Below are positions 5,202-63,696 of a DNA stretch of 64,000 bases, in pieces. Below the pieces are notes generated by a model. The model made no database searches, was not told the DNA's origin, and saw only the letters and a list, made by a program, of their open reading frames with translations. Location of the stretch: the NCBI GenBank assembly GCA_028710275.1, contig JAQTUL010000002.1:12855-76854 (forward strand), in the 5' to 3' direction. This DNA is from Candidatus Colwellbacteria bacterium. GTDB lineage: Bacteria; Patescibacteriota; Minisyncoccia; UBA6257; Colwellbacteraceae. A program made the position numbers and the translations under genes. Numbering within the stretch: the stretch's first letter is position 1; each line of letters starts with the position of its first letter.

Positions 5202-5228
5202 ATTTAATAGATGAGTTATCTATTAAAT
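5202..5228. promoter_or_regulatory. hairpin ATTTAATAGA-tgagtta-TCTATTAAAT in the divergent promoter region between 4273-5121 (-) and 5239 (+)
   Basis: Perfect 10 bp arms. No gene 3' end abuts it, so a pure terminator role does not fit. Confidence 0.4.
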
Positions 5229-5238
5229 TGTAAAGCCA

Positions 5239-6213
5239 ATGAAGATTGCATTCCATGTATATCATTTTACATTCAGAGGAAGTGAGATTGCAGCGTTCGA
5301 TTATGCGCTCTTCAACAGGGAGATCTTAAAAAACTCGTCGATTATTGTCATACCGCGAACACAATCACAACCAGAGAATCCTTTAGTCAAGGAGAAATTC
5401 GAAAACGAGTTTCAGATCTACTACTACGACGATCTCGCACACTTAGAGGAGATCTGTAAGAGGGAAACTGTAGATGCGTTATACACTATCAAATACGGAA
5501 CAAAAGATAAGCTACTTCTAAAGGAGATCCCTGTCTTTGTACACTGTGTCTTTACTACCGAGGAACCACATGGAACTGTTTACGCTGGAGTATCTCAAAG
5601 TGTCGCTAGGAGGAATAATAAATGTGAAACCCCCTTTGTAAATCACATGGTCTATCTTCCGGATATCAAGACTAATTTCAGAGATGATCTCGGAATACCT
5701 TCTAATGCAATTGTGTTCGGTCGACACGGTGGTGATGATACGTTTGATCTTCCATTTGTAAAAGAGGCTATCATTGAATTACTCAATGAGAGAAACGATA
5801 TCTTCTTTCTCTTTGCTGTTCGTCCGAGAATGATGAATGATATCGAACACTCACAGATTATATATCTAGATTCATTTACTGATATGAGAATCAAGACAAA
5901 GTTTATCAATACTTGTGATGCTATGATTCATGCTTGTTCATTAGGTGAAAGTTTCGGTCTATCGATACTGGAATTCTGTCATCAGAATAAACCTGTTATA
6001 ACCTGGACAGGAGGCGCATGGCACAAACAACATCATTCAAATCTCGGATCCAAGGGAATCTACTATACCAACAAGACCTCTGTTAAAAAGATTATGAATG
6101 AGTTCTCTCCATCAGTTCACCAGGGAGAGGATTATAAGAGTCTTGTACTTCCTTTTACACCATCTAAAATTATGAGACAATTCGACGATGTGTTTTTGAA
6201 AGCGATAAAATGA
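5239..6213 (+). CDS. glycosyltransferase (GT1/GT4-like)
   Basis: 324 aa. The C-terminal motif GESFGLSILEFCHQNKPVITWTGG resembles the E(x7)E / EGFGL..EAMA.G.PVI signature of GT-B group 1 glycosyltransferases. Confidence 0.5.
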   Translation: MKIAFHVYHFTFRGSEIAAFDYALFNREILKNSSIIVIPRTQSQPENPLVKEKFENEFQIYYYDDLAHLEEICKRETVDALYTIKYGTKDKLLLKEIPVFVHCVFTTEEPHGTVYAGVSQSVARRNNKCETPFVNHMVYLPDIKTNFRDDLGIPSNAIVFGRHGGDDTFDLPFVKEAIIELLNERNDIFFLFAVRPRMMNDIEHSQIIYLDSFTDMRIKTKFINTCDAMIHACSLGESFGLSILEFCHQNKPVITWTGGAWHKQHHSNLGSKGIYYTNKTSVKKIMNEFSPSVHQGEDYKSLVLPFTPSKIMRQFDDVFLKAIK

Positions 6214-7130
6214 TTTATCTATACAGTCCAATTATATCTACAGACACAACAATGTCTAAACCAGTGGAGATCGTCTTCGAGGATGATAAACCTCTGTATT
6301 CATTGTTTGAAAAGACGAAAGTTAACATATTTCAAACAGCTAAAATTATATCATGGAATGTTAACGGACTTCAAGGAATACTTAAGAAAAATAAGAATGG
6401 AGATAAGAAGTCAAGTTCCGATAAAAATGTTCTGCAACATCTTCTAGATACGGAAAAACCGGACATCATCTGCCTACAAGAGATTCGTTGCTCTGATAAA
6501 TTTAAGTGGGAACCTGAAGATCGAATGAAGTGGTATACCTACGAAAACTATTGTCAATCAAAAAAGGGATATTCAGGAACGTTAATCTCTTCGAAAATCA
6601 AGCCTGTAAATGTAACGTATGGTATGGAAGGTTATGATGATGCTGAAGGTCGGGTAATCACCATGGAGTTTTCAAACTTTTTCTTATTGAATGTGTATAG
6701 TCCGAATTCAGGAACATATAGATTAAAATACAGAACACAGGTTTTTGAACCGTCTTTACATCGTCATGTCGCAAATCTTAATAAACCGGTGGTATTGGTG
6801 GGCGATTTGAACTGTACATTTGAAGATATTGATAAGGGAGTATCTAAACGTATTCCGGGAGATTCTGTAGAAGAACAATTGTGTTCCGCCAAATTATTAT
6901 CACAATGTAAACTTGTTGACACATTCAGATATTTACATCCCACGGATAGAATATATTCATGGTTCTATCCGTGGGATAATAAAAATGGATGTAGATTCGA
7001 CTATATTTTAGTTTCTAAAGAATGGATGAATTTTGTGGTAAGTTCAGATATACTGTATTATTCATCGTCTGATCATCTACCGACACAGATATTTTTAGAT
7101 TTCAAGAAAGATATGCGAGATAAAATATAA
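6210..7130 (+). CDS. AP endonuclease / exodeoxyribonuclease III family (EEP fold)
   Basis: WNVNGL, ICLQEI, GYSGT, NVYSPN, VLVGDLN, VDTFRYLHP, YSWF, RFDYILVS and SDHLP match Xth/APE1 blocks. The start overlaps the upstream stop in ATGA. Confidence 0.85.
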   Translation: MIYLYSPIISTDTTMSKPVEIVFEDDKPLYSLFEKTKVNIFQTAKIISWNVNGLQGILKKNKNGDKKSSSDKNVLQHLLDTEKPDIICLQEIRCSDKFKWEPEDRMKWYTYENYCQSKKGYSGTLISSKIKPVNVTYGMEGYDDAEGRVITMEFSNFFLLNVYSPNSGTYRLKYRTQVFEPSLHRHVANLNKPVVLVGDLNCTFEDIDKGVSKRIPGDSVEEQLCSAKLLSQCKLVDTFRYLHPTDRIYSWFYPWDNKNGCRFDYILVSKEWMNFVVSSDILYYSSSDHLPTQIFLDFKKDMRDKI

Positions 7131-7177
7131 CCATTTTAAAAAATGTATTATAAGTGTATAGTCGATATATACTTATA

Positions 7178-7660
7178 ATGTCGATTCCAAGGGTTGGTGT
7201 ATTATTAGCATATCAGTCAAAAGACACACCCACGAGCTCACCTGAATATCTATGTGTATATCAGGATGCAAGCAAATTATGGGGGTTTCCTAAAGGCCGA
7301 TGGAAAAACTTTGAAACCTACACTCAAGGGGCGTGTAGAGAACTATTAGAGGAAACCGGTATTAAAATCCACCATACTGAATTATCCACTAATAATATGT
7401 ATCATATAAAAAGAGGAAAACACCATCATTACTATTTTGTTAAGGAGGTTAGTCGCAAACCAGTAGTAACTGTTGATGGTGAAGAGATTATCGGATATAA
7501 GTGGATGACCATATCCGATCTCTCAAAGATGAGTGTATCATATTTCACCGATCAGGTTATAAAGAAACTAACAGAGTCTGTACCCGAGGATAATATTGAT
7601 AATCTTATCAAGATTATAGAAACTATTACATTCCGAAATAATATCACTATCTCAGTGTAA
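7178..7660 (+). CDS. Nudix hydrolase (mRNA-decapping-like)
   Basis: The track start 7154 is GTG and the first ATG is at 7178 (MSIPRVG). Perfect Nudix box GRWKNFETYTQGACRELLEETGI (Gx5Ex7REUxEExGU). Confidence 0.75.
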   Translation: MSIPRVGVLLAYQSKDTPTSSPEYLCVYQDASKLWGFPKGRWKNFETYTQGACRELLEETGIKIHHTELSTNNMYHIKRGKHHHYYFVKEVSRKPVVTVDGEEIIGYKWMTISDLSKMSVSYFTDQVIKKLTESVPEDNIDNLIKIIETITFRNNITISV

Positions 7661-7722
7661 ACAACTTTTCAAAAGTGAATTTGTATCTATATTTACAGAT
7701 ATACATACAACTACTTCCCAAA

Positions 7723-8897: not shown

Positions 8898-8927
8898 GTT
8901 ATCGATACCAATATTGGTATCGATAAC
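8898..8927. terminator. 30 bp perfect palindrome GTTATCGATACCAATATTGGTATCGATAAC between 8381-8869 and 8936
   Basis: Perfect dyad, about 30 nt after the upstream stop and 9 nt before the next ATG. Confidence 0.45.
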
Positions 8928-9151: not shown

Positions 9152-9165
9152 GACCGATGAAGGCT

Positions 9166-9192
9166 CTATTAAATTGAAATCCAATTTAATAG
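9166..9192. terminator. hairpin CTATTAAATTG-aaatc-CAATTTAATAG between 8936-9151 and 9221
   Basis: Perfect 11 bp arms. Confidence 0.45.
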
Positions 9193-9220
9193 ATAAGACA
9201 TTTATTATAAGGAACTCCTG

Positions 9221-11659: not shown

Positions 11660-11686
11660 TTATAAAAATTGATATCTGTAATCATT

Positions 11687-11726
11687 GAATATCGTATGCC
11701 ATTATGTATCATGGCATACGATATTC
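11687..11726. terminator. hairpin GAATATCGTATGCCAT-tatgtatc-ATGGCATACGATATTC after the Rad50-like gene stop; both candidate ATGs of the next gene lie inside it
   Basis: Perfect 16 bp arms. Confidence 0.45.
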
Positions 11727-13294
11727 AATCTGATAAAATATTAATTGAAAATAAATGTGTTGTGTGTGGAAAGAAATGTAGTTTTAATTATAAAACTCTA
11801 GATTATGGTGTAAGATGTAGGATTCATAAATTAGAAGAAATGGTTAATATATCGAGCCCAGAATATTGTGAAAAACGATTCGTTAAAACGATAGACAACT
11901 TAAAAGGAAAAGTTGTAGGAAAATATACTGGAGATGGAAATCCGGTTGAATGCGTATGTGAAAAAGGTCATGTGTGTCATCCTAGACCAACTCATATAAA
12001 ACAGGGTAGAGGAATGTGTTTTGCATGTTCAGGAAAAGATTCTAAAACCGCTGAAAATAATTTTTACAAAAACATAATTTTGTTGGGTGGTAAAGTTCTC
12101 GGCGAATATACTGGCAATGATAAACCAGTCGAATGTCTATGCTCTAATGGTCATATTTGCAATCCAAGACCGGGAAGTATACAACAGGGGCAAGGAATGT
12201 GTATTATATGCTCGGGATTAGATTCTAAAACCGCTGAAAATAATTTTTACAAAAACATAATTTTGTTGGGCGGTAAAGTTCTGGGAGAATATAATGGTAA
12301 TGATAAACCAGTCGAATGTCTATGTTCTAATGGTCATATTTGTAATCCAAGACCAGGAAGTATACAACAAGGAAAAGGAATGTGTATTATATGCTCGGGA
12401 TTAGATCCTAAAACGGCCGAATATAATTTTTACAAAAATGTAACTTTATTGGGTGGTAAAGTTATAGGTAAATATGTGAATAGCACCACACAAGTAGAAT
12501 GTATTTGTTGTAATAACCATCAGTGTTATTCAAATCCCTCTTCATTACAACAAGGTAAAGGAATGTGCATAATTTGTGCGAAACAGGATCCTAAAACAGC
12601 AGAAGATAATTTTCACAAATATGTGTCTACTTTGGACGGTAAAGTTATAGGTAAATATGTGAATAGCTACACACAAGTAGAATGTATTTGTTCAAACGGG
12701 CATACATGCAACCCGTATCCATGTAATATTTCAAAAGGGTTAAATATATGTAAAATATGTGCAGGACAAGATCTTCAAACATCAACTGATAAATTCATTA
12801 AAAATATACACAAACTAGGAGGAAAAGTTATCGGTACATATATAAATAATCGCATGCGTGTAGAATGTATATGTATTGCTAATCATAAATGTTGGCCGAT
12901 ACCTAGCAGTATTCAACAGGGTCAAGGAATGTGCCCAAAATGTGCTAAAACATCTTTCTCCAAAATTTCATTCGAGTTTTTGGACGGTATCTGTCTCTCG
13001 CAAAAAATTTCTCTACAGACCGCCAAATCAGAGGAAGGAGAATTCAAGATTCCGGACACCAAATACAAGGTTGATGGCTATCACAAAGAGACCAATACTG
13101 TATACGAGTTTCATGGATGTTACTGGCATGGATGTCCAATGTGTTTTGATCCTGAGAAGATGAATGATATATCAAACAAAACGTTCGGTAAGCTACACGA
13201 TAAGACATTACATCGTGAAGAGTTGATAAGGTCAAAAGGATATAATCTTGTAGTAATGTGGGAGTGTGACTGGAAAGAAAAACTTGTGATTTAA
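11696..13294 (+). CDS. zinc-ribbon repeat protein fused to Vsr-like (very-short-patch-repair type) PD-(D/E)xK endonuclease
   Basis: The track start 11669 is TTG and the first ATGs are at 11696 and 11711. There are seven 61 aa repeats (NPVECxCxxGHxCxPRPxxIQQGxGMCxxCSG). The C-terminus YKVDGYHKETNTVYEFHGCYWHGCPMC matches the Vsr GCFWHG block. Paralog of 3147-4280. Confidence 0.7.
   Translation: MPLCIMAYDIQSDKILIENKCVVCGKKCSFNYKTLDYGVRCRIHKLEEMVNISSPEYCEKRFVKTIDNLKGKVVGKYTGDGNPVECVCEKGHVCHPRPTHIKQGRGMCFACSGKDSKTAENNFYKNIILLGGKVLGEYTGNDKPVECLCSNGHICNPRPGSIQQGQGMCIICSGLDSKTAENNFYKNIILLGGKVLGEYNGNDKPVECLCSNGHICNPRPGSIQQGKGMCIICSGLDPKTAEYNFYKNVTLLGGKVIGKYVNSTTQVECICCNNHQCYSNPSSLQQGKGMCIICAKQDPKTAEDNFHKYVSTLDGKVIGKYVNSYTQVECICSNGHTCNPYPCNISKGLNICKICAGQDLQTSTDKFIKNIHKLGGKVIGTYINNRMRVECICIANHKCWPIPSSIQQGQGMCPKCAKTSFSKISFEFLDGICLSQKISLQTAKSEEGEFKIPDTKYKVDGYHKETNTVYEFHGCYWHGCPMCFDPEKMNDISNKTFGKLHDKTLHREELIRSKGYNLVVMWECDWKEKLVI
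12041..12600 (+). repeat. 183 bp (61 codon) in-frame tandem repeats inside CDS 11696-13294; first three copies over 90% identical
   Basis: tctaaaaccgctgaaaataatttttacaaaaacataattttgttggg... recurs at 12041, 12224 and 12407, then in more diverged copies. Confidence 0.85.
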
Positions 13295-13308
13295 GATATC
13301 GAAAAGTG

Positions 13309-13333
13309 ATTTATAACTTGATGAGTTATAAAT
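13309..13333. terminator. hairpin ATTTATAACT-tgatg-AGTTATAAAT between 11696-13294 and 13345
   Basis: Perfect 10 bp arms. Confidence 0.45.
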
Positions 13334-14456: not shown

Positions 14457-15371
14457 CTAAACATAAGTCTTCTCAACCAGTCGTTTATCAAACTCATTTC
14501 CCATTCCCTTATTCTCGTTGTACAGATCACTATACTTTTCCAATAGTTCACTCTCGTCGTCGCTGATTTCTGCTAACTCAGCACATTTGATCTTCTTGAA
14601 CTCCTTCAGTTTTGTACTCATAATAGGAAGTATGGCTTCCTTTAGTCTCTTCGCTTGTATATCATTAACTACATTTCCTTTATCGTCGTGGTAAATGAAA
14701 TTCTTTCTATTCTTATCCGTACATTTATAGATTAGATTTCCAGATTCATCTCTGATTACATTATCGAGCACCCAATCAGCTTGACCAATCCCACCTCGTT
14801 CATAATGTTTAATTGTGTATGTATCTTTTATAGATTCTAGTCTTTCTTGTGAGAGATTAAGTGAGTTCATAGTTATATTCTTCGCTTTGATATGTGTTGT
14901 GGTAGTTGTGGTACCAACCTTCTCTATTAGTCGTTTACTCTGTTCCTGAGCGAATAGATGTTCTTTGTTGTATAACTCAGTATAGATCTCTTTCTCTCGT
15001 TTATCTCTCTCCTTTTCGATAAGAATTTCTGTTGATTTCTTATATTCCGATAATATGGTTTCGTAATGTTGTTTTTGAATTTCAAGATTTGTCTCGTACC
15101 GACGCTTTTGTTTTTCAATCTCTTGGTTTTTATTTTCAATTATTGTCTCATATCGTTGTGTAACACATTTCACCGGACAGTCGATCTCATGTTTAATTCT
15201 ACTATTATTCGTACGATGTTCTTTTTTACAGTAAGAGCATTCGTTCTTACTGTCCGGAAGATCAACAATCAATACATTTTGTTTATCTAGACAGTATTTT
15301 GTCTTTGCTTGATGTATTTGAAGATTTTGCTTAGTTGTTAATTCCTTATTGCAGAATTGACACTTGAACAT
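14457..15371 (-). CDS. paralogous-family protein, N-terminal C2H2-like zinc finger plus conserved C-terminal domain
   Basis: 304 aa. The N-terminus C.FC..L.TK.NL.IHQAKTKYC and the C-terminal 150 aa are near-identical to 40645-41514 (NITMNSLNLSQERLESIKDTYTIKHYERGG.GQADWV...KEFKKIKCAELAEISDDESELLE). Confidence 0.6.
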   Translation of the reverse strand: MFKCQFCNKELTTKQNLQIHQAKTKYCLDKQNVLIVDLPDSKNECSYCKKEHRTNNSRIKHEIDCPVKCVTQRYETIIENKNQEIEKQKRRYETNLEIQKQHYETILSEYKKSTEILIEKERDKREKEIYTELYNKEHLFAQEQSKRLIEKVGTTTTTTHIKAKNITMNSLNLSQERLESIKDTYTIKHYERGGIGQADWVLDNVIRDESGNLIYKCTDKNRKNFIYHDDKGNVVNDIQAKRLKEAILPIMSTKLKEFKKIKCAELAEISDDESELLEKYSDLYNENKGMGNEFDKRLVEKTYV

Positions 15372-15506
15372 TATTATGACAGTTTATGATAGATTTATTA
15401 TCATAAACCATAATAAACGACCATAAAACTTATGTTTATGATAGATTTATGTCCATAAACTTTTTCGGAGTTTCCGAAAAATAGGATTGCAGTGATCTCC
15501 GAAAGT

Positions 15507-15665
15507 CATAATTTAGAATTAAAGTTGAAAGGAGGATGTTTTCGGATTATGACTTTCGGAGATAAAAGGCTATCCCGTTTCTAAAACTATTTGAAATTGA
15601 AAAAAGTATATCAAACTCTCTCAATATTTGTGAGAGAGGCGACCTCTCCGCCGAAAAACTTTCAG
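15507..15665. repeat. conserved about 130 bp intergenic element with nested inverted repeats, copy A (copy B at 41638-41795)
   Basis: gttttcggattatgactttcggag...tttctaaaactatttgaaattgaaaaaagtatatcaaactctctcaatatttgtgagagaggcgacctctccRccgaaaaactttc is near-identical at both loci. Internal hairpins CTCCGAAAGTCATAAT/ATTATGACTTTCGGAG and CTCTCTCA/TGAGAGAG. Both copies lie 190-290 bp upstream of the paralogous minus-strand genes. Confidence 0.85.
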
Positions 15666-15749
15666 ATAGCGGAAATGGTTGTGTATCTCTGAACTCCGAA
15701 AAACTTTGGTGATAACTTTCGTTTACAAGTTATCACCAAAGGTCGATAG

Positions 15750-15808
15750 ATTGTTGAGCTAGATAAACAGGTTAAATAGTTGATGGTATAATTATCTAGC
15801 TCAACAAT
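15750..15808. promoter_or_regulatory. long hairpin ATTGTTGAGCTAGATAA-n25-TTATCTAGCTCAACAAT ending on the ATG of 15807
   Basis: Perfect 17 bp arms. Lies in the divergent region after the conserved 130 bp element. Confidence 0.4.
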
Positions 15809-18242: not shown

Positions 18243-18288
18243 AGTGATTTTATAGTATCATTACTATAAAATACCATCAACCAACACA
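18241..18288. repeat. 45 bp hairpin-containing element AAAGTGATTTTATAGTATCWTTACTATAAAATACCATCAACCA, copy 1 (copy 2 at 18571-18614)
   Basis: Near-identical sequence directly upstream of the two consecutive ATGs at 18289 and 18615. Contains the palindrome TTTTATAGTA/TACTATAAAA. Related hairpins lie at 35714-35741 and 32064-32088. Confidence 0.8.
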
Positions 18289-18546: not shown

Positions 18547-18614
18547 TTTCTTTGTATATGAAACAGAATTAAAGTGATTTTATAGTATCTTTACTATAAA
18601 ATACCATCAACCAC

Positions 18615-22561: not shown

Positions 22562-22602
22562 TTTCTTTTTACTCTATTTTGATGTAAAAGATCACTAATA
22601 TA

Positions 22603-22630
22603 TTTACAATTAATAACTGTTAATTGTAAA
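22603..22630. terminator. hairpin TTTACAATTAA-taactg-TTAATTGTAAA abutting the ATG at 22630
   Basis: Perfect 11 bp arms. Confidence 0.45.
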
Positions 22631-23517
22631 TGAGTCGTTTGAATTGGCGAAGTAACCCTCCAAAAAAACAGATCGATGAGCAATGCGCTGTTCGTATCAT
22701 TCCATATGTAATTGAAAAAGATGGAACTATTTCTCTTTTTCTGGGGTTGGATAAGAGGTTTAAAGAATGGACCCCGGCGGGAGGGGCATGTAACGAACAG
22801 AAAGGTTCATGTTCGAGACGAGATACGTCATCGTTAAAAACATGTCTCGCTCGAGAGTTGTCTGAGGAATCGAAAGAGATTATCGATCTCGACCAGACGG
22901 TTGATTTTGTAAATTGTAGGTTCATTCATTACGTTGTAAAACTTTCATGGGCTAATATGCATAACAATATCTATTTTGCTCAATGGACAGGTGATAATAA
23001 AGAATCGATCATCAGTTATTTCAATGATGCTGAACGTGATAAATCTCTGCGTGAGAGACTTCAATCCGAAGGTAAAACCCCAAAAATAGTAAATTCATAT
23101 TTTGAAATGGATTCGATAGATTTTATTCCTGTTACATACGAAGTGTTTGGGGAATACATCTACAACAGTATTCAGGATTTCTACAAATTAGAGGAGACCT
23201 ACAAAAAAGATAAGGCGTTTTATGCGCAGATATCAGATACATTTTCCGCGATGTTTAAACATTATCCCAAGAAGGATAATGGTAATACGAACGGACGTCG
23301 TCTCGATCCTCGGTTTCTCTTAGGAATGGTCGAGGCAATATCAGATTATCTATCCAATGAGTTCAAATACAAGCATGTTGATGATATCGTTGATGATATA
23401 ATTAGATATATCAAGGGTATTAAAAATGGATGTTCTCTTAATAGTGATAGTATCAGGTTACCATCGAAAAGTGATTCTTCTAAAAAGGTATCGGAAGATG
23501 ATACACCGTTAGTCTAA
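22630..23517 (+). CDS. hypothetical protein (possible degenerate Nudix-like region)
   Basis: 295 aa. ATG verified. GGACNEQ...LARELSEESKEI only loosely resembles a Nudix box. Confidence 0.4.
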   Translation: MSRLNWRSNPPKKQIDEQCAVRIIPYVIEKDGTISLFLGLDKRFKEWTPAGGACNEQKGSCSRRDTSSLKTCLARELSEESKEIIDLDQTVDFVNCRFIHYVVKLSWANMHNNIYFAQWTGDNKESIISYFNDAERDKSLRERLQSEGKTPKIVNSYFEMDSIDFIPVTYEVFGEYIYNSIQDFYKLEETYKKDKAFYAQISDTFSAMFKHYPKKDNGNTNGRRLDPRFLLGMVEAISDYLSNEFKYKHVDDIVDDIIRYIKGIKNGCSLNSDSIRLPSKSDSSKKVSEDDTPLV

Positions 23518-23518
23518 C

Positions 23519-25194: not shown

Positions 25195-25563
25195 ATTTCA
25201 TGTCACTATTAACAGAATAATATATTCCTTTGAATGAATATATTAATCACAATGAAGTTCTTTATACAGAACAGAAACTGTATCTGTAGCGGCTGTCGGC
25301 CAGAAATATGGAAGGATTCCATGTATCGTTGTTTTCACACTACAGATAATCATTCTTGTAGATATTGAGAATGCTCTCTTCATATGATCAAAATAGCTTA
25401 TGTTATTCTCTGTGAGATGAGAGAAAAATCTTGAATTAATCGCGTCGATTCGTTGGGCCATTCTTTCTTATACTTTCAATTATTTAAAACGACAACGATG
25501 AAAAAGTGAGATCCCGAATAATATTGTAGTTGAAATCACTACACTTTACCAACCACCAACACT

Positions 25564-27432: not shown

Positions 27433-27486
27433 AGAAGATGAAGGAAAATTGAGATATCATTTTGAATATAATATCTCAATTACACA

Positions 27487-27808: not shown

Positions 27809-27979
27809 ACAATTGATTATTGAAAAATTTGAGAATTGTAGATCAACATTATGGACACTCTCTTCTCAAATTTTTCAATAATTCCATCTAGATTGATAAC
27901 TCACTATTTAGTAAGTGATGATATCTCAAAAGTGTGCTTAAAAGTTGAAGCACATATCTCTGTGGCTCAGAGAGAGATC

Positions 27980-32056: not shown

Positions 32057-32085
32057 TCTCTTCATAAATTTATAGTATCACCAAC

Positions 32086-32442
32086 ATGGAATCATACTAT
32101 AAATTTACATACGGAAATGAGATCTCTATCTACTTCAAAGAGGAACTGGAAGAGATAGAGACTTATCTCAATAGGACAATTCTTGAAGAGATGACGAGTT
32201 ATCACTGTGATGGATGTAATTACTGTTGTTATGGAACTTATGTATCCAAATATTGGTGTGAGAAGAAATTCAAGGGGGAAGAGGATTTTTCCGAATACTA
32301 TGAGATGTGTCGACAGAAGGGATTTACCTTGAAAGCTCACATAGAAAAAATCTCTTTCGAAAAAGGTATTGTAGGGTACTTTGATGGTGTGGAATTTCTA
32401 TGGGAACTTGATAGCGATTACAAATTCAAGTTGGTTCTGTAG
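32086..32442 (+). CDS. small Cys-rich hypothetical protein
   Basis: 118 aa. CDGCNYCCYGTY..C cluster. Confidence 0.35.
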   Translation: MESYYKFTYGNEISIYFKEELEEIETYLNRTILEEMTSYHCDGCNYCCYGTYVSKYWCEKKFKGEEDFSEYYEMCRQKGFTLKAHIEKISFEKGIVGYFDGVEFLWELDSDYKFKLVL

Positions 32443-35359: not shown

Positions 35360-35742
35360 AAAATGATTTTATCTTACCATTCATTATCTTATACTATCAA
35401 ATGACTACCATCAATTGTATTATCGAGACAAACATCTACAGAAAATATGAATTGGTAGGACCAAATTCATATGCTACGTGTGTAATTGAAAAATACGACA
35501 AAAATTGGAGTAAGTGGATGGCATGTTGAGTTGATATCAGCATTCCCTAAACGTCAAGGACTTGCTAGTAAACTTATTTCTCATATTCGAAATGATATGA
35601 AGGTTGATTTTTCAGTATGTCCTATAAACGACGGAATTCCTTTCCTTAATAAGATGGGTATGTCAATTAACAATGGTCTTCCAAAAATCGAGTGATAAGT
35701 TTCGACTTTTATATTTTATAGTAGTAATATCTACTATAAAAT

Positions 35743-36633
35743 ATGCCTATCAGGTATCAAGGTGGAAAGCAACGCTTTGCAAAGGCGATCTATGAGGTTA
35801 TGACCGATTACGAATATCGAAACACAGGAAAGAATAAGCTCAATCTCTACTCACCATTTTTCGGTATGGGAGCCGTAGAGTTAGAGTTCTCTAGAAGGGA
35901 TAACGACGAGAAGTGTGTACGAACGATAACAGCCAATGATATAAACGAAGATGTTATTCTTATGTGGGAGTCTCTCCAAGATGGTTGGCTTCCTAAAAAG
36001 ACCTGTTCAGAGACATACTACAAGAAATTAAAGACATCTGATCCATCAGCTGAGAGAGGATTTTATCTTTCCGCTTACGCGTTTGGTGGAGTATTTGGAA
36101 GCAGTTTCAGAGGAAAGTATCAAACTCCTGAACAGAATAAACGAGAAGGTCTTAATGCATACAACAAAGTGAAAGAGGTTGTTCCTTATCTAGACTGTTT
36201 TAAGTTTCGTAACGGATCGTATATAAAACGAATGCCGAAAAAGGGAGAGATGGTCTACGCTGATCCTCCGTATTATAGTTCTCTAGATTATGGAGTGAAT
36301 AAGTATCTGACCGATTTCGATTACGATGAGTTCTGGGATACGATGAGAAAATGGAGTAAGACCAATCTAGTGTTTATAAGTGAAGAGAAAGGAAAACATA
36401 TACCGAAAGATTTTATAAGTATATGGGAACTCTCTACAACTAGAACGGTGGGAAGTCTCAAAGGTGGAAAGGGAAAGAAAAAGGAATCTCTCTTTATTCA
36501 TAAACGATATGTGAAGAAGGGATCGAAGAGACGAGAGAGTCCCGATAAGGAGAAGATTTCAGAATGCAAAGAGTATCTAGAGGATATGGGATATAATGTT
36601 AAGAAAACCCGTAGATCTAAAAATGATTTGTAA
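35743..36633 (+). CDS. N6-adenine DNA methyltransferase (Dam/D12 class)
   Basis: N-terminus IRYQGGKQR (WAGGK-like AdoMet motif). Catalytic DPPY at VYADPPYYSS. Confidence 0.75.
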   Translation: MPIRYQGGKQRFAKAIYEVMTDYEYRNTGKNKLNLYSPFFGMGAVELEFSRRDNDEKCVRTITANDINEDVILMWESLQDGWLPKKTCSETYYKKLKTSDPSAERGFYLSAYAFGGVFGSSFRGKYQTPEQNKREGLNAYNKVKEVVPYLDCFKFRNGSYIKRMPKKGEMVYADPPYYSSLDYGVNKYLTDFDYDEFWDTMRKWSKTNLVFISEEKGKHIPKDFISIWELSTTRTVGSLKGGKGKKKESLFIHKRYVKKGSKRRESPDKEKISECKEYLEDMGYNVKKTRRSKNDL

Positions 36634-37734: not shown

Positions 37735-37769
37735 AGTAAAAGATATATAAATATAATATATCTTTTACT
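37735..37769. terminator. hairpin AGTAAAAGATATAT-aaatata-ATATATCTTTTACT between 36957-37697 and 37781
   Basis: Perfect 14 bp arms. Confidence 0.45.
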
Positions 37770-38911: not shown

Positions 38912-38933
38912 ATCACTTACGGAGAACAGAATA

Positions 38934-38961
38934 ATTTTCATTGAATAACACCAATGAAAAT
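38934..38961. terminator. hairpin ATTTTCATTG-aataacac-CAATGAAAAT in the convergent spacer between 38456-38911 (+) and 38982-39455 (-)
   Basis: Perfect 10 bp arms. Could serve both converging genes. Confidence 0.45.
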
Positions 38962-38981
38962 TACAATTAAAGTTGGGGCTT

Positions 38982-41514: not shown

Positions 41515-41637
41515 GGCTGATTACTTTTTCTTACATTTCTTTAAAGTTACTTACTTAAGGAAAGTAAGTAAAAGTAAGGAATCTTCGAAATACTTCCGAA
41601 CTTATGACTTTCAGAGATCAGAGAAATCGTCTGAAAG

Positions 41638-41795
41638 TCATAACTCAAATTTATACATTAATAGAGACCGTTTTCGGATTATGACTTTCGGAGTTCAAAG
41701 GGAATCCCATTTCTAAAACTATTTGAAATTGAAAAAAGTATATCAAACTCTCTCAATATTTGTGAGAGAGGCGACCTCTCCACCGAAAAACTTTC
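41638..41795. repeat. conserved about 130 bp intergenic element with nested inverted repeats, copy B
   Basis: See the 15507-15665 entry. Confidence 0.85.
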
Positions 41796-41841
41796 TAGTT
41801 TCGGAGTTCGGAGATAGTCGTGAACTCCGAAAAACTATTTG

Positions 41842-41890
41842 ATTTTAAAAGCTTCGGTCCAATACATTGGACTACTTCGTACTTTTTAAA
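41842..41890. repeat. 45 bp AAAAGCTTCGG...CTTCGTACTTTT element (copy 2)
   Basis: See the 766-812 entry. Lies about 70 bp upstream of the PIF1 gene start. Confidence 0.75.
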
Positions 41891-41956
41891 AGACATTGAT
41901 CAATGTCTTTTAAAATTGATCCAAAAGAATAGAGATAATACTAGTACATCTTCCAA

Positions 41957-45112: not shown

Positions 45113-45125
45113 AAAAAATGTTTGT

Positions 45126-45153
45126 TTTCAATATGTACTTGACTATTGAAAAC
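45126..45153. terminator. hairpin palindrome TTTTCAATA-n10-TATTGAAAA 14 bp after the PIF1 gene stop
   Basis: Perfect 9 bp arms. Position relative to the stop is consistent with a 3'-end hairpin signal. Confidence 0.45.
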
Positions 45154-46156: not shown

Positions 46157-46231
46157 ACTTTTTAAAGTCTAGACTTTAAAAAGCTCCGTCTCGATTATCA
46201 GGATTGTTCCAACTTTTTAAAAGCTCCGTCC
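46157..46231. repeat. two partial dispersed repeat copies (- orientation) plus 26 bp perfect palindrome CTTTTTAAAGTCTAGACTTTAAAAAG in the divergent spacer
   Basis: ctttttaaagtctagactttaaaaagctccgtc ... gttccaactttttaaaagctccgtcc. Confidence 0.75.
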
Positions 46232-48361: not shown

Positions 48362-48433
48362 TGTCGAAAAAATGATTATTTCATATTGTATCACGGAGAG
48401 ATTACTCCGTGATACAAATACCACTTCAAAACC

Positions 48434-50252: not shown

Positions 50253-50265
50253 CGATTCAAAAATG

Positions 50266-50291
50266 ATTTCTAATTTGATCAAATTAGAAAT
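50266..50291. terminator. 26 bp perfect palindrome ATTTCTAATTTGATCAAATTAGAAAT after the 49569-50252 stop
   Basis: Perfect dyad with no loop. Confidence 0.45.
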
Positions 50292-51392: not shown

Positions 51393-51425
51393 TTACTAAT
51401 AGAGATAAAGAATCTCTATTAGTAA
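51393..51425. terminator. hairpin TTACTAATAGAGAT-aaaga-ATCTCTATTAGTAA between 50905-51366 and 51433
   Basis: Perfect 14 bp arms. Confidence 0.45.
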
Positions 51426-52107: not shown

Positions 52108-52160
52108 TATCATTATATCATCTATCTCTAAAGGTCCTATCAAAAATGATAACAACCTAA

Positions 52161-52201
52161 TTAGCCATATCGATTATCACAGTGATAATCGATATGGCTA
52201 A
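52161..52201. terminator. 41 bp perfect palindrome TTAGCCATATCGATTATCAC-a-GTGATAATCGATATGGCTAA after the resolvase gene; overlaps the start codon of the next gene
   Basis: 20 bp arms, the longest dyad in the window. Confidence 0.5.
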
Positions 52202-53222
52202 TGCAATCCCGCGACAGGATTCATACTCTTTTCTGGACACGATAAACCCATCGGTCTTTCGTCACTTAACAAAGAACGTAGTGGATCTAAGAGTATGGAA
52301 TACATCATTCCCTTTAACGATTATGAGTCATAACAAGAGACGTGAGTGTAGATACGGAAAGGAATGTAAGAAGAAGGATAAGTGTATTTTCAGACATGAT
52401 CCGAACTACTGTCTCAATTTCTTTCTCTATGAAAAGTGTGATTGTATTAATAAGAACAATGGATATCATATCACCGAAAAAATGTTCACTATAGTCGCAT
52501 CCAATACTCTGGAATCTCTCATACAGATAAAGCAGACACGTCTGGAAGAGAAAGTAAAAAAGGATGAGATTGAACGACAGAGACAATTAAGAGATGCAGA
52601 GATTCAAAGAAAGATGTATGAGGAGCAAATGAAGAAGTGGGAACAAGAGTATGAAAGACAACGTAAAAAAGATGAAAAACGACAAGAAGAGTTGGATCGT
52701 AAACGGAAAGAGAAACAGAGAGCGGAACTGAAGAAACAAGATGATGAGAGGAAAATTAAAATTAAGAATATTACGGAACCCGATTATGTCGATCTCTCTG
52801 ATCCAAGTGAGTTTTACGATGAGTTTCCCTTCACAGAGAAATATATCGTAAACATGATCGTCGATTATATGAAGTCGAATGTCACTCTTCCCAATTTTCT
52901 AAACACTTGTGGATGTGAGAGTGTAGGATACGCAAGTGCGGGATACAATTCCTACTCTGTAAAATATACCACATTCACTCGTATGTTTGGTAACACTTAT
53001 AAAAATATCTGTACAGTATGTTTCAAGGATCTAGTCATTCTTCACGTAGACTACTTCGCTTCACAAATAGAATTCCCTTTTGGTGGATGGTTTCTCAATG
53101 AGATACAACAACTGAGTCACAAAGATAAGAAAGGATATGAGATATACAAGACTCAATGGACTGACCTCTTAGAATTGACAGATCTGATCAGACGAAGGAG
53201 AAAGGAGATAAAAGAGACCTAA
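52194..53222 (+). CDS. hypothetical protein with K/E/R-rich coiled-coil segment
   Basis: The track start 52182 is GTG and the ATG is at 52194, inside the right arm of a 41 bp perfect palindrome. Confidence 0.5.
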   Translation: MANAIPRQDSYSFLDTINPSVFRHLTKNVVDLRVWNTSFPLTIMSHNKRRECRYGKECKKKDKCIFRHDPNYCLNFFLYEKCDCINKNNGYHITEKMFTIVASNTLESLIQIKQTRLEEKVKKDEIERQRQLRDAEIQRKMYEEQMKKWEQEYERQRKKDEKRQEELDRKRKEKQRAELKKQDDERKIKIKNITEPDYVDLSDPSEFYDEFPFTEKYIVNMIVDYMKSNVTLPNFLNTCGCESVGYASAGYNSYSVKYTTFTRMFGNTYKNICTVCFKDLVILHVDYFASQIEFPFGGWFLNEIQQLSHKDKKGYEIYKTQWTDLLELTDLIRRRRKEIKET

Positions 53223-53418
53223 AGATATAATATACTTATATGGGCGCGCGAATGGTTTCGACTTGGTTCTTATACAGCTGACGGAGGGGTCCAATTCCCC
53301 TCGTGCCTATACACTAAAATTATTTTATCGTATGAATACGATAAAATATCTTCAATAAAAATGAATATGCCGACTGTTCTAGAGGAAATTCTACCACTCA
53401 TCGTCTCTTCCGTAAAAG

Positions 53419-59021: not shown

Positions 59022-60041
59022 ATGAAAATTGAGATAATACAACAAAAATCTTTACCTGTTGTATTACCTACACCTCACCAACCAATCATGTCGACAACGT
59101 GCAATATTTCCTTTAACTTTGGAACCATGAGTACAAAGAATCTCGAGGAGATCAGAGCGAATGTGAATCGAATTCTCGCGGCTCGTCGTCCTCTATCAAG
59201 TGTTTCCTACTTGAACCGACTTATGACCAAGGATCATATGAAGTACGAATATAAGTTTGTTCGAGAGACCAATAACGACGGTCTTCGTTATTGGAATTGT
59301 TTTTTGACTTATCGAAAGGCCGGTGACGATACTCTTCATACGTGGGGTTGTGATATTAATAAGAAGAAAGCAAAGCAGGTTGCAGCATCGGAAATGAGAC
59401 TATTCTTTGATGAAGAGTACTCGTATAACCCCCGAGATTATGATAAGCAGGAAATTGAAGCAAAATTCATTGACCCAATTGAAGATGATGACGAATACGA
59501 GGACGATTTTTATTACTCCGACGAAGACAAAGAGTCTCCATATTCATTGAGTGAGGATGAACGTTACATGTCACAGAAATATACTCCTATTCCGGTTGAG
59601 AGTGACTACGACAGTGACTACAATGGAAGTGATCTGGATGAAACTGATCGATCACCTCGTGTAGTCTATATTCATGGATTGAAGGATTTCGAGGACAATG
59701 ACGACGACTCAACATCCAATCCCGAATGGATGTCTGAGTGGAAGAATATGAATGATGGAGAGAAGAAGGAGTTTCTGGATAAGGAGATCGATGAATATAC
59801 CAATGAGACGATCGAACGAGGAAAATATCTCTCTAATCTTAAGGAATGTGTCGAAACTCTTCAAAACCTTCCATGGAAGAAAGAGATTCTGAAGACTATT
59901 TCAGAATCGAATGAGTCTACAGTGAGTGGTGATTGGGAGAAGTATGTTGTTTCTCTTCCACTACATACTCTCGATTTGAATACTTCTGACCAGAACGTGA
60001 TTATTGATATCAACGACGATGAATGGGAGATGATGATCTAA
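59022..60041 (+). CDS. hypothetical acidic protein
   Basis: The track start 58989 is GTG overlapping the upstream stop. The first ATG is at 59022 (MKIEIIQQ). Confidence 0.5.
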   Translation: MKIEIIQQKSLPVVLPTPHQPIMSTTCNISFNFGTMSTKNLEEIRANVNRILAARRPLSSVSYLNRLMTKDHMKYEYKFVRETNNDGLRYWNCFLTYRKAGDDTLHTWGCDINKKKAKQVAASEMRLFFDEEYSYNPRDYDKQEIEAKFIDPIEDDDEYEDDFYYSDEDKESPYSLSEDERYMSQKYTPIPVESDYDSDYNGSDLDETDRSPRVVYIHGLKDFEDNDDDSTSNPEWMSEWKNMNDGEKKEFLDKEIDEYTNETIERGKYLSNLKECVETLQNLPWKKEILKTISESNESTVSGDWEKYVVSLPLHTLDLNTSDQNVIIDINDDEWEMMI

Positions 60042-60062: not shown

Positions 60063-60086
60063 ATTCAAAAGTTATAACTTTTGAAT
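60063..60086. terminator. hairpin ATTCAAAAGTT-at-AACTTTTGAAT after the 59022-60041 stop
   Basis: Perfect 11 bp arms. Confidence 0.45.
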
Positions 60087-61995: not shown

Positions 61996-62020
61996 AAGCC
62001 GCTCCCAACGATATCGAAGA

Positions 62021-62046
62021 ATAAATGTGACTTTAAAATATAGAGA
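62021..62046. terminator. hairpin CTTTAAAATA-tagaga-TATTTTAAAG after the 61237-61995 stop
   Basis: Perfect 10 bp arms. Confidence 0.45.
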
Positions 62047-62075
62047 TATTTTAAAGTAAAGTAACCTAACAAGCG

Positions 62076-62645: not shown

Positions 62646-62675
62646 TTAAAGTAAAAAATCTCTAATGAACTAGTC

Positions 62676-63008
62676 ATGAAAACCTTTCCTGATAAACTAC
62701 GTCCAGAGAATAGAGAACGATTTGTAGCTGAATATCGATTCAATCGAGAACTCTGTAAACTAAGACAGAGAATCGTCGATTATATGTATTCTGGAGATAA
62801 TAAGGGATTCGACCTTAAATCGTCTACAGACGGTAACGGACAATATGAGTATTCAACAATAGATCGTGAACTTGTAGATTCCGCGTGTAGAGAACTTCAT
62901 ACTCTTGGATGGAATACGGAATTAGCGTACGGAGAAACCACGCTTTTCATATTCAAGAATCGTTCAGAGCTTCCAATGATGAGTGATATGCAAGAGATCG
63001 ATTCGTAA
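62676..63008 (+). CDS. hypothetical protein
   Basis: 110 aa. ATG verified. Confidence 0.4.
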   Translation: MKTFPDKLRPENRERFVAEYRFNRELCKLRQRIVDYMYSGDNKGFDLKSSTDGNGQYEYSTIDRELVDSACRELHTLGWNTELAYGETTLFIFKNRSELPMMSDMQEIDS

Positions 63009-63240
63009 AGATTTATAATATTTACTGTATTATAAATATGTCAAAACTTGCACCCATAATTATGTTATGATGATGTTGTATTATGGTCTTAGTTTTGGGT
63101 GGATGTACATGTCAGAAGACAGGAACAGGATGGAGAATATAATCTCTATTCCCACACATACAAATTGATTATATTCTTATTCAAGAGAATATAATCACTC
63201 CTTCTCAAAAACCCACAGAGGAGGTTCCAACTTTTCAGAT

Positions 63241-63648
63241 ATGGCTACTCCGACAACTCACCTCCCGACCCGTATGTCGTATTACTCTCCAGTGGATTAT
63301 GGAGAGCGATATCACTATGTACATCCTTCTCTTCCAGGTATTCCTCCATCGTCTTACAATCCTCCCGCCCCAGGTGATAAGCTTTATGAAGTCAGTATCA
63401 AGGTAGAGGAGGTGAAGTCTTCTCTCCACCAAGCGATCGATAAGACTATTGCTCGTGGAGAACAACTTGAGGAGACTGAACGAAGGGCTCAGGAGCTTGA
63501 GAACAACTCCAACCGTTTTTATCGAGGAGCCCGTAATCTCAAGTGTATGTTCTGTAAAAAGAACGCGCGAATGATCGGATGTTGTCTATTTGCTCTTGCA
63601 CTTGTGATCTTCACAATCGTTATGATCGCAAAGTCGTATTCGAATTGA
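63241..63648 (+). CDS. synaptobrevin/VAMP-like R-SNARE, tail-anchored
   Basis: Pro-rich N-terminus. IDKTIARGEQLEETERRAQELENNSNRFYRGARNLKCMFCKKNARMIGCCLFALALVIFTIV aligns residue by residue with the VAMP2 SNARE motif ([58 protein letters not shown]), including the zero-layer Arg and the C-terminal TM helix. Confidence 0.6.
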   Translation: MATPTTHLPTRMSYYSPVDYGERYHYVHPSLPGIPPSSYNPPAPGDKLYEVSIKVEEVKSSLHQAIDKTIARGEQLEETERRAQELENNSNRFYRGARNLKCMFCKKNARMIGCCLFALALVIFTIVMIAKSYSN

Positions 63649-63668
63649 GAACTATAACGTTAAAATTG

Positions 63669-63696
63669 AATAAATCCTATTGTAATAGGATTTATT
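63669..63696. terminator. hairpin AATAAATCCTAT-tgta-ATAGGATTTATT 21 bp after the SNARE-like gene stop
   Basis: Perfect 12 bp arms. Confidence 0.5.

Follow-up and report, generated by a model that had tools for sequence, protein, structure and literature searches.

In this study, we explored the short palindromes that separate the genes of a 64,000-nt stretch of DNA (the window). Our findings support a model, in our view probably correct, where these palindromes are signals of the "hairpin rule" in a nucleocytoplasmic large DNA virus, an uncultivated member of the Pimascovirales near clade PM_04. That the window belongs to an uncultivated giant virus is clear: the same contig carries a VLTF3 gene 9 kb upstream of the window, eukaryote-like genes and inteins are encoded in the window itself, and its nearest classified relatives are those of Pimascovirales clade PM_04. 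The giant-virus gene set comprises VLTF3, a bifunctional DHFR-TS, TRAF/RING, synaptobrevin and inteins, with OGFr also listed as viral or eukaryote-like. A first-pass annotation had likened the hairpins to those of a "mimivirus-like" giant virus; the giant-virus origin is confirmed by these genes and relatives, but the affinity is with PM_04 and not with mimiviruses. GenBank files this giant-virus contig under the bacterial name "Candidatus Colwellbacteria", a mislabel.

The spacers of the window hold 34 perfect, AT-rich palindromes (arm GC 0.18), with arms of 9-21 nt (median 12) and loops of at most 15 nt. Perfect inverted repeats with arms of at least 9 nt and loops of at most 12 nt occur at 4.8/kb in spacers (31 in 6.5 kb) and at 0.38/kb in coding sequence (22 in 57.5 kb), and the ratio of the two densities rises from 12-fold at arms of at least 9 nt to 41-fold at 11 and 56-fold at 12. 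When each spacer was shuffled with its dinucleotides preserved, a mean of 0.69 hairpins (maximum 2) was obtained, against 30 observed. The observation of more than 25 spacer hairpins is thus confirmed, both by density in spacers against coding sequence and by a shuffled control. The notion that nearly every spacer carries one was overstated: among the 53 spacers that are 20 nt or longer, 28 do so by our filter, or 29 (55%) if 11684..11729 (arms 19, loop 8) is included, a hairpin that the filter missed because its centre falls within a called ORF. The coordinates first assigned were right to within 1-3 nt in all cases but one, the palindrome placed at 62021-62046 being about 10 nt off (62030..62057; arms 12, loop 4). 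When folded as RNA, eight test hairpins gave -7.9 to -28.5 kcal/mol with z-scores of -2.7 to -10.3, for instance 8898..8927 (arms 15, loop 0; -19 kcal/mol, z -6.6), 37735..37769 (arms 14, loop 7; -14.1 kcal/mol, z -6.1), 48386..48417 (arms 13, loop 6; -20.5 kcal/mol, z -7.7), and 52160..52202 (arms 21, loop 1; -28.5 kcal/mol, z -10.3).

The hairpins are mostly unique in sequence, as had been noted, but not all of them are. Identical arms occur at 18247..18272 and 18577..18602 (arms 11, loop 4 in both), each within a copy of a duplicated promoter-hairpin cassette of ~45 nt, and related arms at 35711, 32065, and 53321. Moreover, two repeat-rich divergent spacers, 15372-15806 (435 nt) and 41515-41956 (442 nt), contain hairpins partly assembled from one shared repeat. 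The former includes 15382..15408 (arms 10, loop 7), TTTTTCGGA at 15461..15481 (arms 9, loop 3) built from the shared repeat motif, a long inverted repeat at 15495..15563 (arms 18) that is assembled from the shared motif TTATGACTTTCGGAG, 15704..15741 (arms 15, loop 8), and the inverted repeat 15750..15808 (arms 17, loop 25). The latter includes 41547..41571 (arms 10, loop 5), an inverted repeat at 41602..41643 (arms 14) that is assembled from the shared motif TTATGACTTTC, TTTCGGAGTTC at 41799..41832 (arms 11, loop 12), likewise built from a shared motif, and the palindrome 41884..41915 (arms 16, loop 0), whose end overlaps AAAATTGA at 41912.

The position of the hairpins is tied to that of a second element. 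AAAANTGA, a strand-specific early-promoter-like motif, precedes 27 of 63 genes at a distance of 40-70 nt. Its copies in plus-strand spacers of the window number 28 (819, 7671, 8330, 8883, 11665, 13302, 24147, 25502, 27445, 28500, 30287, 32461, 36895, 37723, 38452, 39994, 41912, 45185, 47731, 48368, 50259, 50843, 52142, 53357, 58394, 59018, 61182, and 63662; the representative is 13302..13309, plus strand); this degenerate form is enriched, whereas the exact AAAATTGA is not (9 found, 10 expected). Short spacers read stop codon, AAAANTGA, hairpin, ATG, with a median of 2 nt from motif to hairpin start and the loop centre ~18 nt past the motif. For example, AAAAATGA at 819-826 stands directly upstream of hairpin 831..858 (arms 9, loop 10), itself 60 nt past the stop at 770 and 11 nt before ATG 870. 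Hairpin 13309..13333 (arms 10, loop 5) begins directly after AAAAGTGA (13302-13309), palindrome 50266..50291 (arms 13, loop 0) starts on the last base of AAAAATGA (50259-50266), 27447..27481 (arms 11, loop 13) overlaps AAAATTGA at 27445, and 63667..63698 (arms 15, loop 2), past the stop at 63648, adjoins AAAATTGA at 63662. At 45124..45153 (arms 10, loop 10; 11 nt past the stop at 45112) and 53321..53348 (arms 13, loop 2) the hairpin precedes the motif (45185 and 53357, respectively). The octamer, often followed by TTT, resembles in strand specificity and distance to the ATG the early promoter core of poxviruses and iridoviruses (AAAANTGAAAA; IIV-6 AAAATTGATTATTTGTTTT; PMC5294985), and in IIV-6 and vaccinia start sites fall 12-17 nt past the same core. 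Poxviruses differ from the window virus, with its putative promoter octamer, in ending early transcripts by the T5NT signal, not by hairpins.

Several hairpins reach the start codon itself. Four 3' arms finish exactly on the AT of an ATG: 7147..7179 (arms 9, loop 15; ATG 7178), 15750..15808 (ATG 15807), 22602..22631 (arms 12, loop 6; ATG 22630), and 35711..35744 (arms 14, loop 6; ATG 35743), the last 351 nt past the preceding stop. The 3' arm of 52160..52202 takes in ATG 52194 plus the two codons after it, that of 11684..11729 opens with an in-frame ATG at 11711, and the inverted repeat 32065..32107 (arms 14, loop 15) has ATG 32086 within its span. Others end short of the start, such as 5202..5228 (arms 11, loop 5), which does occupy a divergent spacer and stops 10 nt before ATG 5239, and 63166..63197 (arms 12, loop 8), 43 nt before ATG 63241. 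On the stop side we find TTTTGTAATA/TATTACAAAA (1381..1407; 17 nt past the stop at 1364), 25218..25245 (arms 10, loop 8; 23 nt past 25194), the palindrome 60063..60086 (arms 12, loop 0; 21 nt past 60041), and 63011..63037 (arms 10, loop 7; 2 nt past 63008), while 38932..38963 (arms 12, loop 8) occupies a convergent spacer with both stop codons ~20 nt away. The first of these is kept in sequence after the orthologous gene in two relatives, L015 and GROS; the ORF call that encloses it (1345-1830) probably has a mis-called start. Hairpin 2541..2570 (arms 12, loop 6) was considered as a divergent-spacer case and rejected, since public annotation calls a 155-aa minus-strand ORF at 2598-3065; it lies between this gene and another in tandem on the minus strand (1822-2502). 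The palindrome 46158..46183 (arms 13, loop 0) also separates tandem minus-strand genes. The remaining hairpins are the one with TAAATTGA at 9165..9193 (arms 12, loop 5), 35445..35472 (arms 9, loop 10), within a 383-nt spacer, and 51393..51425 (arms 14, loop 5).

The trait is clade-wide. In nearly all of 59 related loci, hairpin density is 2-20 per kb in spacers and 0-0.8 per kb in coding sequence; two have fewer than 1 per kb of spacer. Among spacers of 20-150 nt in ~850 kb of related contigs, a hairpin is present in 50 of 73 convergent (68%), 122 of 231 tandem (53%), and 29 of 95 divergent ones (31%), an order that supports a role at the 3' end. Divergent spacers still contain 4.9 hairpins/kb, however, and in long spacers density is alike in the three orientations (3.5-3.9/kb). 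In spacers of 110-400 nt a hairpin lies within 30 nt of the ATG in 26/102 tandem and 17/88 divergent cases, and within 30 nt of the stop in 25/102 and 13/58; start-codon and stop-codon hairpins are thus equally frequent in long spacers (19-25% each), and they occur independently. Because the former are as common as the latter in divergent and long spacers, a model confined to 3' ends is incomplete, and the hint of a second role in the first-pass annotation gains statistical backing. Read-through from hairpin-less convergent junctions did not predict hairpin presence in divergent spacers (p = 0.41).

Unique intergenic palindromes in giant viruses are a published signature of hairpin-directed 3'-end formation, reported for Mimiviridae (Byrne et al. 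2009; Priet et al. 2015, PMC4402537), Pithovirus, and Marseilleviridae (PMC5413956), with RNase III cleavage shown experimentally. By this analogy the 3'-end reading first proposed is partly supported; the convergent excess and a hairpin following the OGFr_N gene also favour it, and what it misses, as a sole role, is the start-abutting hairpins. As in Mimivirus and Megavirus, the palindromes are strong, AT-rich, and without consensus, in a compact genome with a conserved A-rich octamer promoter ending in TGA nearby, and the proposed mechanism consists of RNase III cleavage with subsequent polyadenylation. The window virus differs in belonging to Pimascovirales and not Imitervirales, in its shorter stems (median 12 bp; only 8 hairpins combine a stem of at least 13 bp with a loop of at most 5 nt, the Mimivirus criteria), in the lack of enrichment of exact AAAATTGA, and in that its hairpins usually lie past the next gene's promoter, against its ATG. 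Neither an RNase III signature nor a poly(A) polymerase was seen in the contig's 75 kb or in ~1 Mb of related loci, all partial genomes. Parallels within the order are found in Pithovirus sibericum and Marseilleviridae: 27 window hairpins fit the Pithovirus search criteria (stem at least 10, loop at most 10; listed in PMC8557863), and some two thirds of palindromes lie in the non-coding ~10% of the genome, as has been reported for Noumeavirus. In Marseilleviridae, on the other hand, enrichment at start codons was ascribed to the stop of the upstream gene, whereas in the window and related contigs start-abutting hairpins match stop-abutting ones in frequency and occur both in divergent spacers and 75-217 nt past the preceding stop.

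Under the hairpin rule, transcription would continue beyond the stop codon and the palindrome would fold in the nascent RNA into an AT-rich stem-loop of ~12 bp. The stem may then be nicked by an RNase III-like nuclease that the virus encodes, and the new 3' end extended by a viral poly(A) polymerase, as the parallel with Mimivirus R343 and R341 suggests. Since the palindrome is perfect in DNA, the same site could serve transcripts from either direction, so that one hairpin might act for both convergent genes, or stop read-through or antisense RNA before a start. In tight tandem arrays, where stop codon, AAAANTGA promoter core, hairpin, and ATG follow one another, transcription of the next gene probably starts within the hairpin, and its own mRNA would thus lack a complete stem.

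Other readings of the hairpins deserve mention. We consider it unlikely, if worth weighing, that many are gene-start elements of the promoter-to-ATG interval and not upstream 3'-end signals, acting at initiation or in the 5' UTR, where they would control translation, affect mRNA stability, or shield the transcript from the Nudix decapping enzyme of the virus. Such a role would suit the short-spacer hairpins that follow the next gene's AAAANTGA and reach the ATG or stop ~10 nt short of it, including the four finishing on its AT, and those that, in long or divergent spacers, lie within 30 nt of 19-25% of gene starts. It would equally suit the divergent start codons with one hairpin beside each (L001 19634-19736 and GROS 16391-16476), and the hairpin upstream of gene 9221-11659 (9165..9193), which has a similar counterpart before the GROS ortholog despite a different upstream neighbour. 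Yet convergent spacers, which have no gene start, are the most often occupied, 45124 and 63011 are stop-proximal with the next ATG far off, and stems folding at -10 to -28 kcal/mol over a start codon would block translation if present in the mRNA; a factor-binding site is disfavoured because each sequence differs. In support of the 3'-end reading, the hairpin after the OGFr_N gene (27447..27481) is kept with that gene even where a different one lies downstream, its arm AATTGAGATAT being conserved in L001 9261-9293. At the GROS ortholog, another hairpin with arms of 12 nt takes the place of 22602..22631.

Rather improbable, in our judgement, is that the palindromes act mainly as DNA (cruciform formation, promoter opening, or recombination at gene-cassette boundaries) or are self-propagating by-products, made and "perfected" from their flanks by template switching or fold-back copying in replication, removed from coding DNA but tolerated between genes. 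Perfect arms nearly devoid of G·T pairs would agree with this, as would the orientation-independent density in long spacers and the symmetry between gene starts and ends. So would three cases among close relatives where the loop is the exact reverse complement and the arms are unchanged (e.g. atta/taat), the 5' arms that copy coding sequence including the start and first codons (52160..52202 and 11684..11729), and a perfect palindrome with 27-nt arms in L015 whose window counterpart is degenerate. Against the hairpin-rule reading, stems with a single mismatch show no G·U bias (G·T 14, A·C 12) and no sense-strand RNA signature, and arm changes between relatives comprise only 1 compensated against 21 pair-breaking. 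Against the DNA-level reading, relatives 85-98% identical show 0.014 changes per site in arms, 0.091 in loops and 0.060 in the rest of the spacer DNA; arms thus evolve ~6 times more slowly than loops and ~4 times more slowly than neighbouring spacer DNA, which argues for selection on pairing, though a symmetrising repair process could mimic it. Hairpins also gather at coding-sequence edges and are not uniformly spread, short convergent spacers are occupied twice as often as divergent ones, and RNA cleavage at such hairpins is experimentally shown in related virus families. Rho-independent terminators of a candidate-phyla-radiation bacterium (Candidatus Colwellbacteria), suggested by the contig's database name, the compact, mostly co-oriented genes, and stem-loops directly past stop codons, are hardly credible: a T-run follows 0 of 31 hairpins, the arms are AT-rich with perfect Watson-Crick symmetry and no G·U pairs, a scan for bacterial terminators yields 8 where chance predicts 7.8, neither tRNA genes nor Rfam matches were found, the gene content is viral or eukaryote-like, and the relatives are classified giant-virus genomes.

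Overall, the hairpin rule, already known in cultured Pimascovirales (Pithovirus and Marseilleviridae), probably gains another case in the window virus. Compared with the known rule, the hairpins here adjoin gene starts as often as gene ends.

Perfect inverted repeats are concentrated in the intergenic spacers of the window. An exhaustive scan, covering 6.5 kb of spacer and 57.5 kb of coding sequence, recovered 31 with arms of at least 9 nt and a loop of at most 12 nt in spacers (4.8/kb) and 22 in coding sequence (0.38/kb), a 12-fold ratio that becomes 41-fold for arms of at least 11 nt (23 vs. 5) and 56-fold for arms of at least 12 nt (19 vs. 3). Dinucleotide-preserving shuffles of each spacer yielded a mean of 0.69 and a maximum of 2, against 30 observed. 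Thus, the spacer enrichment proposed in the first-pass annotation withstands both the comparison with coding sequence and the shuffled control, and all but one of its example hairpins were recovered within 1–3 nt; the exception, cited at 62021-62046, is a palindrome lying at 62030-62057. That nearly every spacer carries a hairpin was too broad a statement: despite the strong enrichment, a perfect one occurs in only 29 of the 53 spacers that are 20 nt or longer (28 by the filter, plus the hairpin 11684-11729). Similarly, the arms do vary from hairpin to hairpin, but not each has a sequence of its own, given the repeat-built hairpins of the divergent spacers 15372-15806 and 41515-41956 and the pair 18247-18272 and 18577-18602, which flank an 85-aa ORF and are copies of one cassette. 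This cassette, ~45 nt of promoter plus hairpin (TTAAAGTGATTTTATAGTATC.TTACTATAAAATACCATCAACCA), is doubled, one copy on each side of the ORF (window 18230-18615). With the loop limit raised to 15 nt, 34 spacer hairpins are found (median arm 12 nt, median loop 6 nt, arm GC 0.18); 27 have the stem of at least 10 and loop of at most 10 published for Pithovirus and 8 the stem of at least 13 and loop of at most 5 of Mimivirus, values that we took from papers later than Byrne 2009 and Legendre 2010. Folded as RNA, eight hairpins gave −7.9 to −28.5 kcal/mol, with z-scores of −2.7 to −10.3. Several hairpins "inside" ORFs are probably the product of mis-called starts, for example 1381-1407, which two relatives retain 3' of the ortholog of the upstream gene. 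Coding sequence overall holds 21 palindromes against 4.9 predicted by shuffles, and four perfect ones with arms of 11–15 nt lie deep in long ORFs (6937-6977, 17817-17851, 37835-37860, and 44125-44146).

Dispersed palindromic repeat elements (MITE- or REP-like, with many copies of one sequence) were rejected as an origin, the hairpins being unique and the repeat families of the window separate from them. Elsewhere in the window, a 42-nt unit repeated in tandem (3.2 copies, 27677-27809) holds a GC-rich mini-hairpin, GTGGGAT-cgt-ATCCCAC. CGGAGCTTTTNAAA, a dispersed motif, has 14 occurrences (0.05 expected), distributed over both strands and over spacers as well as ORF interiors; besides 27677-27809, mini-hairpin/CGGAGCTTTTNAAA sites lie at 24404, 28015, 39539, 40379, 46175, 46215, 58449, 61268, and 61310. 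Two genes contain in-frame tandem repeats, of a 183-nt unit (3.8 copies, 11995-12693) and of a 237-nt unit in the region of a helicase-associated (HA) domain (1.8 copies, 20271-20704). Two C2H2-zinc-finger paralogs on the minus strand, 14457-15371 and 40645-41514, are 63% identical overall, with nearly identical C-terminal halves, and each adjoins one of the ~440-nt divergent spacers 15372-15806 and 41515-41956, dense in direct and inverted copies of TTATGACTTTCGGAG/AACTCCGAAAAACTTT; both spacers are candidate regulatory hubs or origin-like regions.

The source of this DNA is a giant virus of the Pimascovirales, mis-binned into the MAG of a CPR bacterium. With a GC content of ~37%, the window is ~90% coding and contains ~63 ORFs, predominantly on the plus strand. 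Its Pfam matches of giant-virus or eukaryote type include a bifunctional DHFR-TS, a TRAF/RING protein, and an OGFr domain; others are to synaptobrevin, dual-specificity phosphatase, Nudix, and D12 methyltransferase. The same DNA occurs in a Logan assembly (L005 1-9584) that continues for 9.6 kb more upstream and includes, ~9 kb upstream, the poxvirus-type late transcription factor VLTF3, whose structure model matches giant-virus VLTF3s (best viral match Marseillevirus LCMAC101, 29% identity). By VLTF3, the nearest IMG/VR contigs (49–50% identity) belong to GVMAG-M-3300023184-24 and GVMAG-M-2140918012-1, both members of PM_04, an uncultivated, freshwater, family-level clade of Pimascovirales (Aylward et al. 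2021 supplement). It is the upstream VLTF3, the Pfam content, and these relatives that identify the virus, although NCBI entries identical to the window proteins read "MAG: ... Candidatus Colwellbacteria bacterium" (90.6-kb contig, locus tags PHG66_). The mimivirus-like virus to which the hairpins were at first compared is not its relative: the closest classified VLTF3 relatives are PM_04 Pimascovirales, and the exact Mimivirus octamer AAAATTGA alone is without enrichment (9 found vs. 10 expected). Phage origin was rejected, with 0 megablast matches in a phage collection, and scans of the window found no tRNA genes or Rfam families. The PIF1-type helicase gene (41957-45112) is split by an intein with a LAGLIDADG homing endonuclease; the gene of a 1656-aa helicase-like protein (53419-58389) carries an intein of the same type, inserted directly after the P-loop GLGK.

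Spacer palindromes are a feature of the wider clade. They recur in syntenic contigs of three related uncultured viruses with 62–87% protein identity: L001, L015, and GROS (L003 and L014 joined). Of 59 IMG/VR loci (VLTF3 32–50% identity, GC 22–51%), nearly all have 2–20 palindromes per kb of spacer versus 0–0.8 per kb of coding sequence, and two have fewer than 1 per kb of spacer. Among loci more than 99.7% identical, L056 and L058 carry 38–49 spacer palindromes versus 17–21 in L053/L055, two to three times more; this surplus may represent a palindromic array expanding locally.

Upstream of start codons, k-mer enrichment disclosed a promoter-like motif, AAAANTGA; its N is mainly A, G, or T, and TTT frequently comes next. 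Plus-strand spacers contain 28 copies, spacers contain none in minus orientation, and all coding sequence together contains 12; in 27 of 63 genes the motif lies 40–70 nt before the ATG. The motif is identical to the poxvirus early core AAAANTGAAAA (positions −25 to −13), and the DNA polymerase promoter of iridovirus IIV-6, AAAATTGATTATTTGTTTT (positions −19 to −2; PMC5294985), is a further match. Short tandem spacers are ordered stop codon, motif, hairpin, ATG, and L097, which is related more distantly, repeats the motif-hairpin-ATG layout. From the motif's end, the median distance is 2 nt to where the hairpin begins, ~18 nt to the centre of its loop, ~32 nt to its end, and 43 nt to the ATG. 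The 3' arm terminates exactly on the AT of the ATG in four hairpins (7179, 15808, 22631, and 35744), and two (52160-52202 and 11684-11729) contain the start codon and first codons; in two longer spacers (45124 and 53321) the hairpin is ahead of the motif. Since IIV-6 and vaccinia transcripts start 12–17 nt after the core (PMC5294985), with the same spacing the downstream mRNA would start within the hairpin and lack the full stem.

Several observations link the hairpins to 3' ends. Among spacers of 20–150 nt in 39 non-redundant clade loci, a hairpin is present in 68% of convergent (50/73), 53% of tandem (122/231), and 31% of divergent spacers (29/95). In L001 the arm sequence of the hairpin 3' of OGFr_N is preserved despite a different downstream neighbour, and a hairpin of differing sequence follows each of the three VLTF3 orthologs. 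We favour, with moderate confidence, the reading in which the palindromes are hairpin-rule signals: each would fold as the RNA is synthesized and guide a viral RNase III-like enzyme to its cleavage site, with polyadenylation next, as shown for Mimivirus R343/R341 (Priet et al. 2015) and inferred for Pithovirus and Marseilleviridae (PMC5413956). A perfect DNA palindrome would work in both directions, which would account for single hairpins in convergent spacers, and those before start codons may halt read-through or antisense RNA. Neither an RNase III signature nor a poly(A) polymerase was detected in 75 kb of this contig or in ~1 Mb of related loci, all of them partial genomes; the protein 59022-60041 has a weak dsRNA-binding match, and the proposal that it is an RNase III found no support. 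Of the short contigs examined, Logan L097 and L098 among them, none ends in a poly(A) run; L098 moreover contains neighbouring ORFs, so these two carry no 3'-end information.

The filed bacterial origin would make the hairpins rho-independent terminators, a reading that we reject almost with certainty: none of 31 has 5 or more T among the 8 nt that follow it, the arms have a GC of 0.18 where a GC-rich stem is expected, and a terminator scan performs at chance (8 found vs. 7.8 expected). A function at gene starts, as promoter or 5' UTR, has more in its favour, and a link to gene ends does not account for every hairpin. Divergent spacers still hold 4.9 hairpins/kb, more than 10 times the coding density, and may present one at each ATG (L001 19621-19652 and 19706-19732; GROS 16400-16426 and 16449-16507); the hairpin upstream of 9221-11659 is kept in GROS despite a changed upstream context. 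Where tandem spacers reach 100 nt or more, hairpin positions are bimodal, with counts by decile from stop to ATG of 32, 10, 11, 15, 5, 10, 9, 5, 19, and 34. Within spacers of 110–400 nt, a hairpin lies at most 30 nt from the gene end in 25/102 tandem and 13/58 convergent cases, and as close to the gene start in 26/102 tandem and 17/88 divergent cases, start- and end-proximal hairpins being independent (odds ratio 1.2, p = 0.79). Hidden small genes behind ATG-proximal hairpins were rejected, as the bimodality remains in spacers free of any ORF of at least 25 aa. A need to stop read-through, with divergent hairpins serving hairpin-less convergent neighbours, fits the window by eye, but counts of 8/17 vs. 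5/10 in four related genomes and 22/60 vs. 13/47 in the wider clade (p = 0.41) lend it no statistical support. For Marseilleviridae, the Noumeavirus study explained the excess of palindromes at start codons by the upstream gene, whereas in the long spacers here hairpins are about as frequent at starts as at ends. We rate it as unlikely that many of the hairpins are gene-start elements; short convergent spacers, devoid of gene starts, are the class most often occupied.

How the palindromes evolve bears on a mainly DNA-level or mutational origin. Stems are perfect, and outward extension yields almost no extra pairing and no G·T preference. Single-mismatch stems of tandem spacers include 14 with G·T and 12 with A·C, so that the G·U vs. 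A·C asymmetry, examined as a pointer to the functional RNA strand, gives no signal, and nothing points to selection acting on the sense RNA by itself. In comparisons of clade members 85–98% identical, substitutions per site are 0.014 in arms, 0.091 in loops, 0.060 in other spacer DNA, and 0.072 in coding sequence, a comparison partly biased because hairpins were picked as perfect in one genome; many other hairpins, with indel differences or not alignable, fall beyond it. Compensatory substitutions are essentially absent (1 compensated pair vs. 21 broken): the arms are simply conserved, or else replaced wholesale. Of seven loop variants with at least two differences, three are exact reverse complements between unchanged arms (e.g. 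L067/L069, TTTTAAAATATT-atta/taat-AATATTTTAAAA; L046/L074, ata/tat), which implies a footprint of DNA-level inversion or template switch. L015 contains, at 11886-11942, a perfect palindrome with 27-nt arms, the right one being the conserved upstream region of the 4273-5121 ortholog; its counterpart is degenerate in the window (5140-5200) and absent in GROS. Either one lineage gained or perfected this palindrome, or the other let it decay. This case and the 5' arms mirroring coding sequence suggest that inverted copying of adjacent DNA gives rise to palindromes or perfects them. Three strain pairs, L001/L002, L003/L004, and L015/L016, are identical over their aligned portions and therefore uninformative for micro-evolution; in the otherwise identical L003 and L004, ~157 nt 3' of the DHFR-TS gene (11634-11790) do not align, marking this spacer as variable. 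Even so, given the conserved arms and the orientation counts, we consider it rather improbable that the palindromes are mainly of DNA-level or mutational origin. More tentatively than the hairpin rule, one may envisage a symmetric gene-bracketing system, in which palindromes made, and held perfect, by template switch or inversion are selected at CDS starts and ends alike, and would cut or stop, independently of direction, whatever transcript runs across a gene boundary, or act on DNA, at promoters or in recombination between gene cassettes. They would then be more than 3'-end signals of the upstream gene. With starts as occupied as ends, no G·U bias, and loop flips, the accepted 3'-only picture may be incomplete.

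The hairpin rule has been known since 2009 and was already reported for cultured Pimascovirales; here its palindromes are encountered in a clade without isolates. Less expected are the promoter-then-hairpin packing, the equal occupancy of starts and ends, the lack of G·U bias, and the loop flips. Combined with unique spacer palindromes, AAAANTGA provides a sequence-only marker, which here revealed giant-virus DNA in a contig filed under a bacterial MAG. The spacer palindromes are shown as a trait across ~40 related partial genomes; if they are indeed transcript 3'-end signals, the hairpin rule would reach a family-level giant-virus clade that metagenomes alone have revealed, and the stop-promoter-hairpin-ATG order would offer a concrete layout for a promoter and a terminator that share 50–70 nt of spacer.
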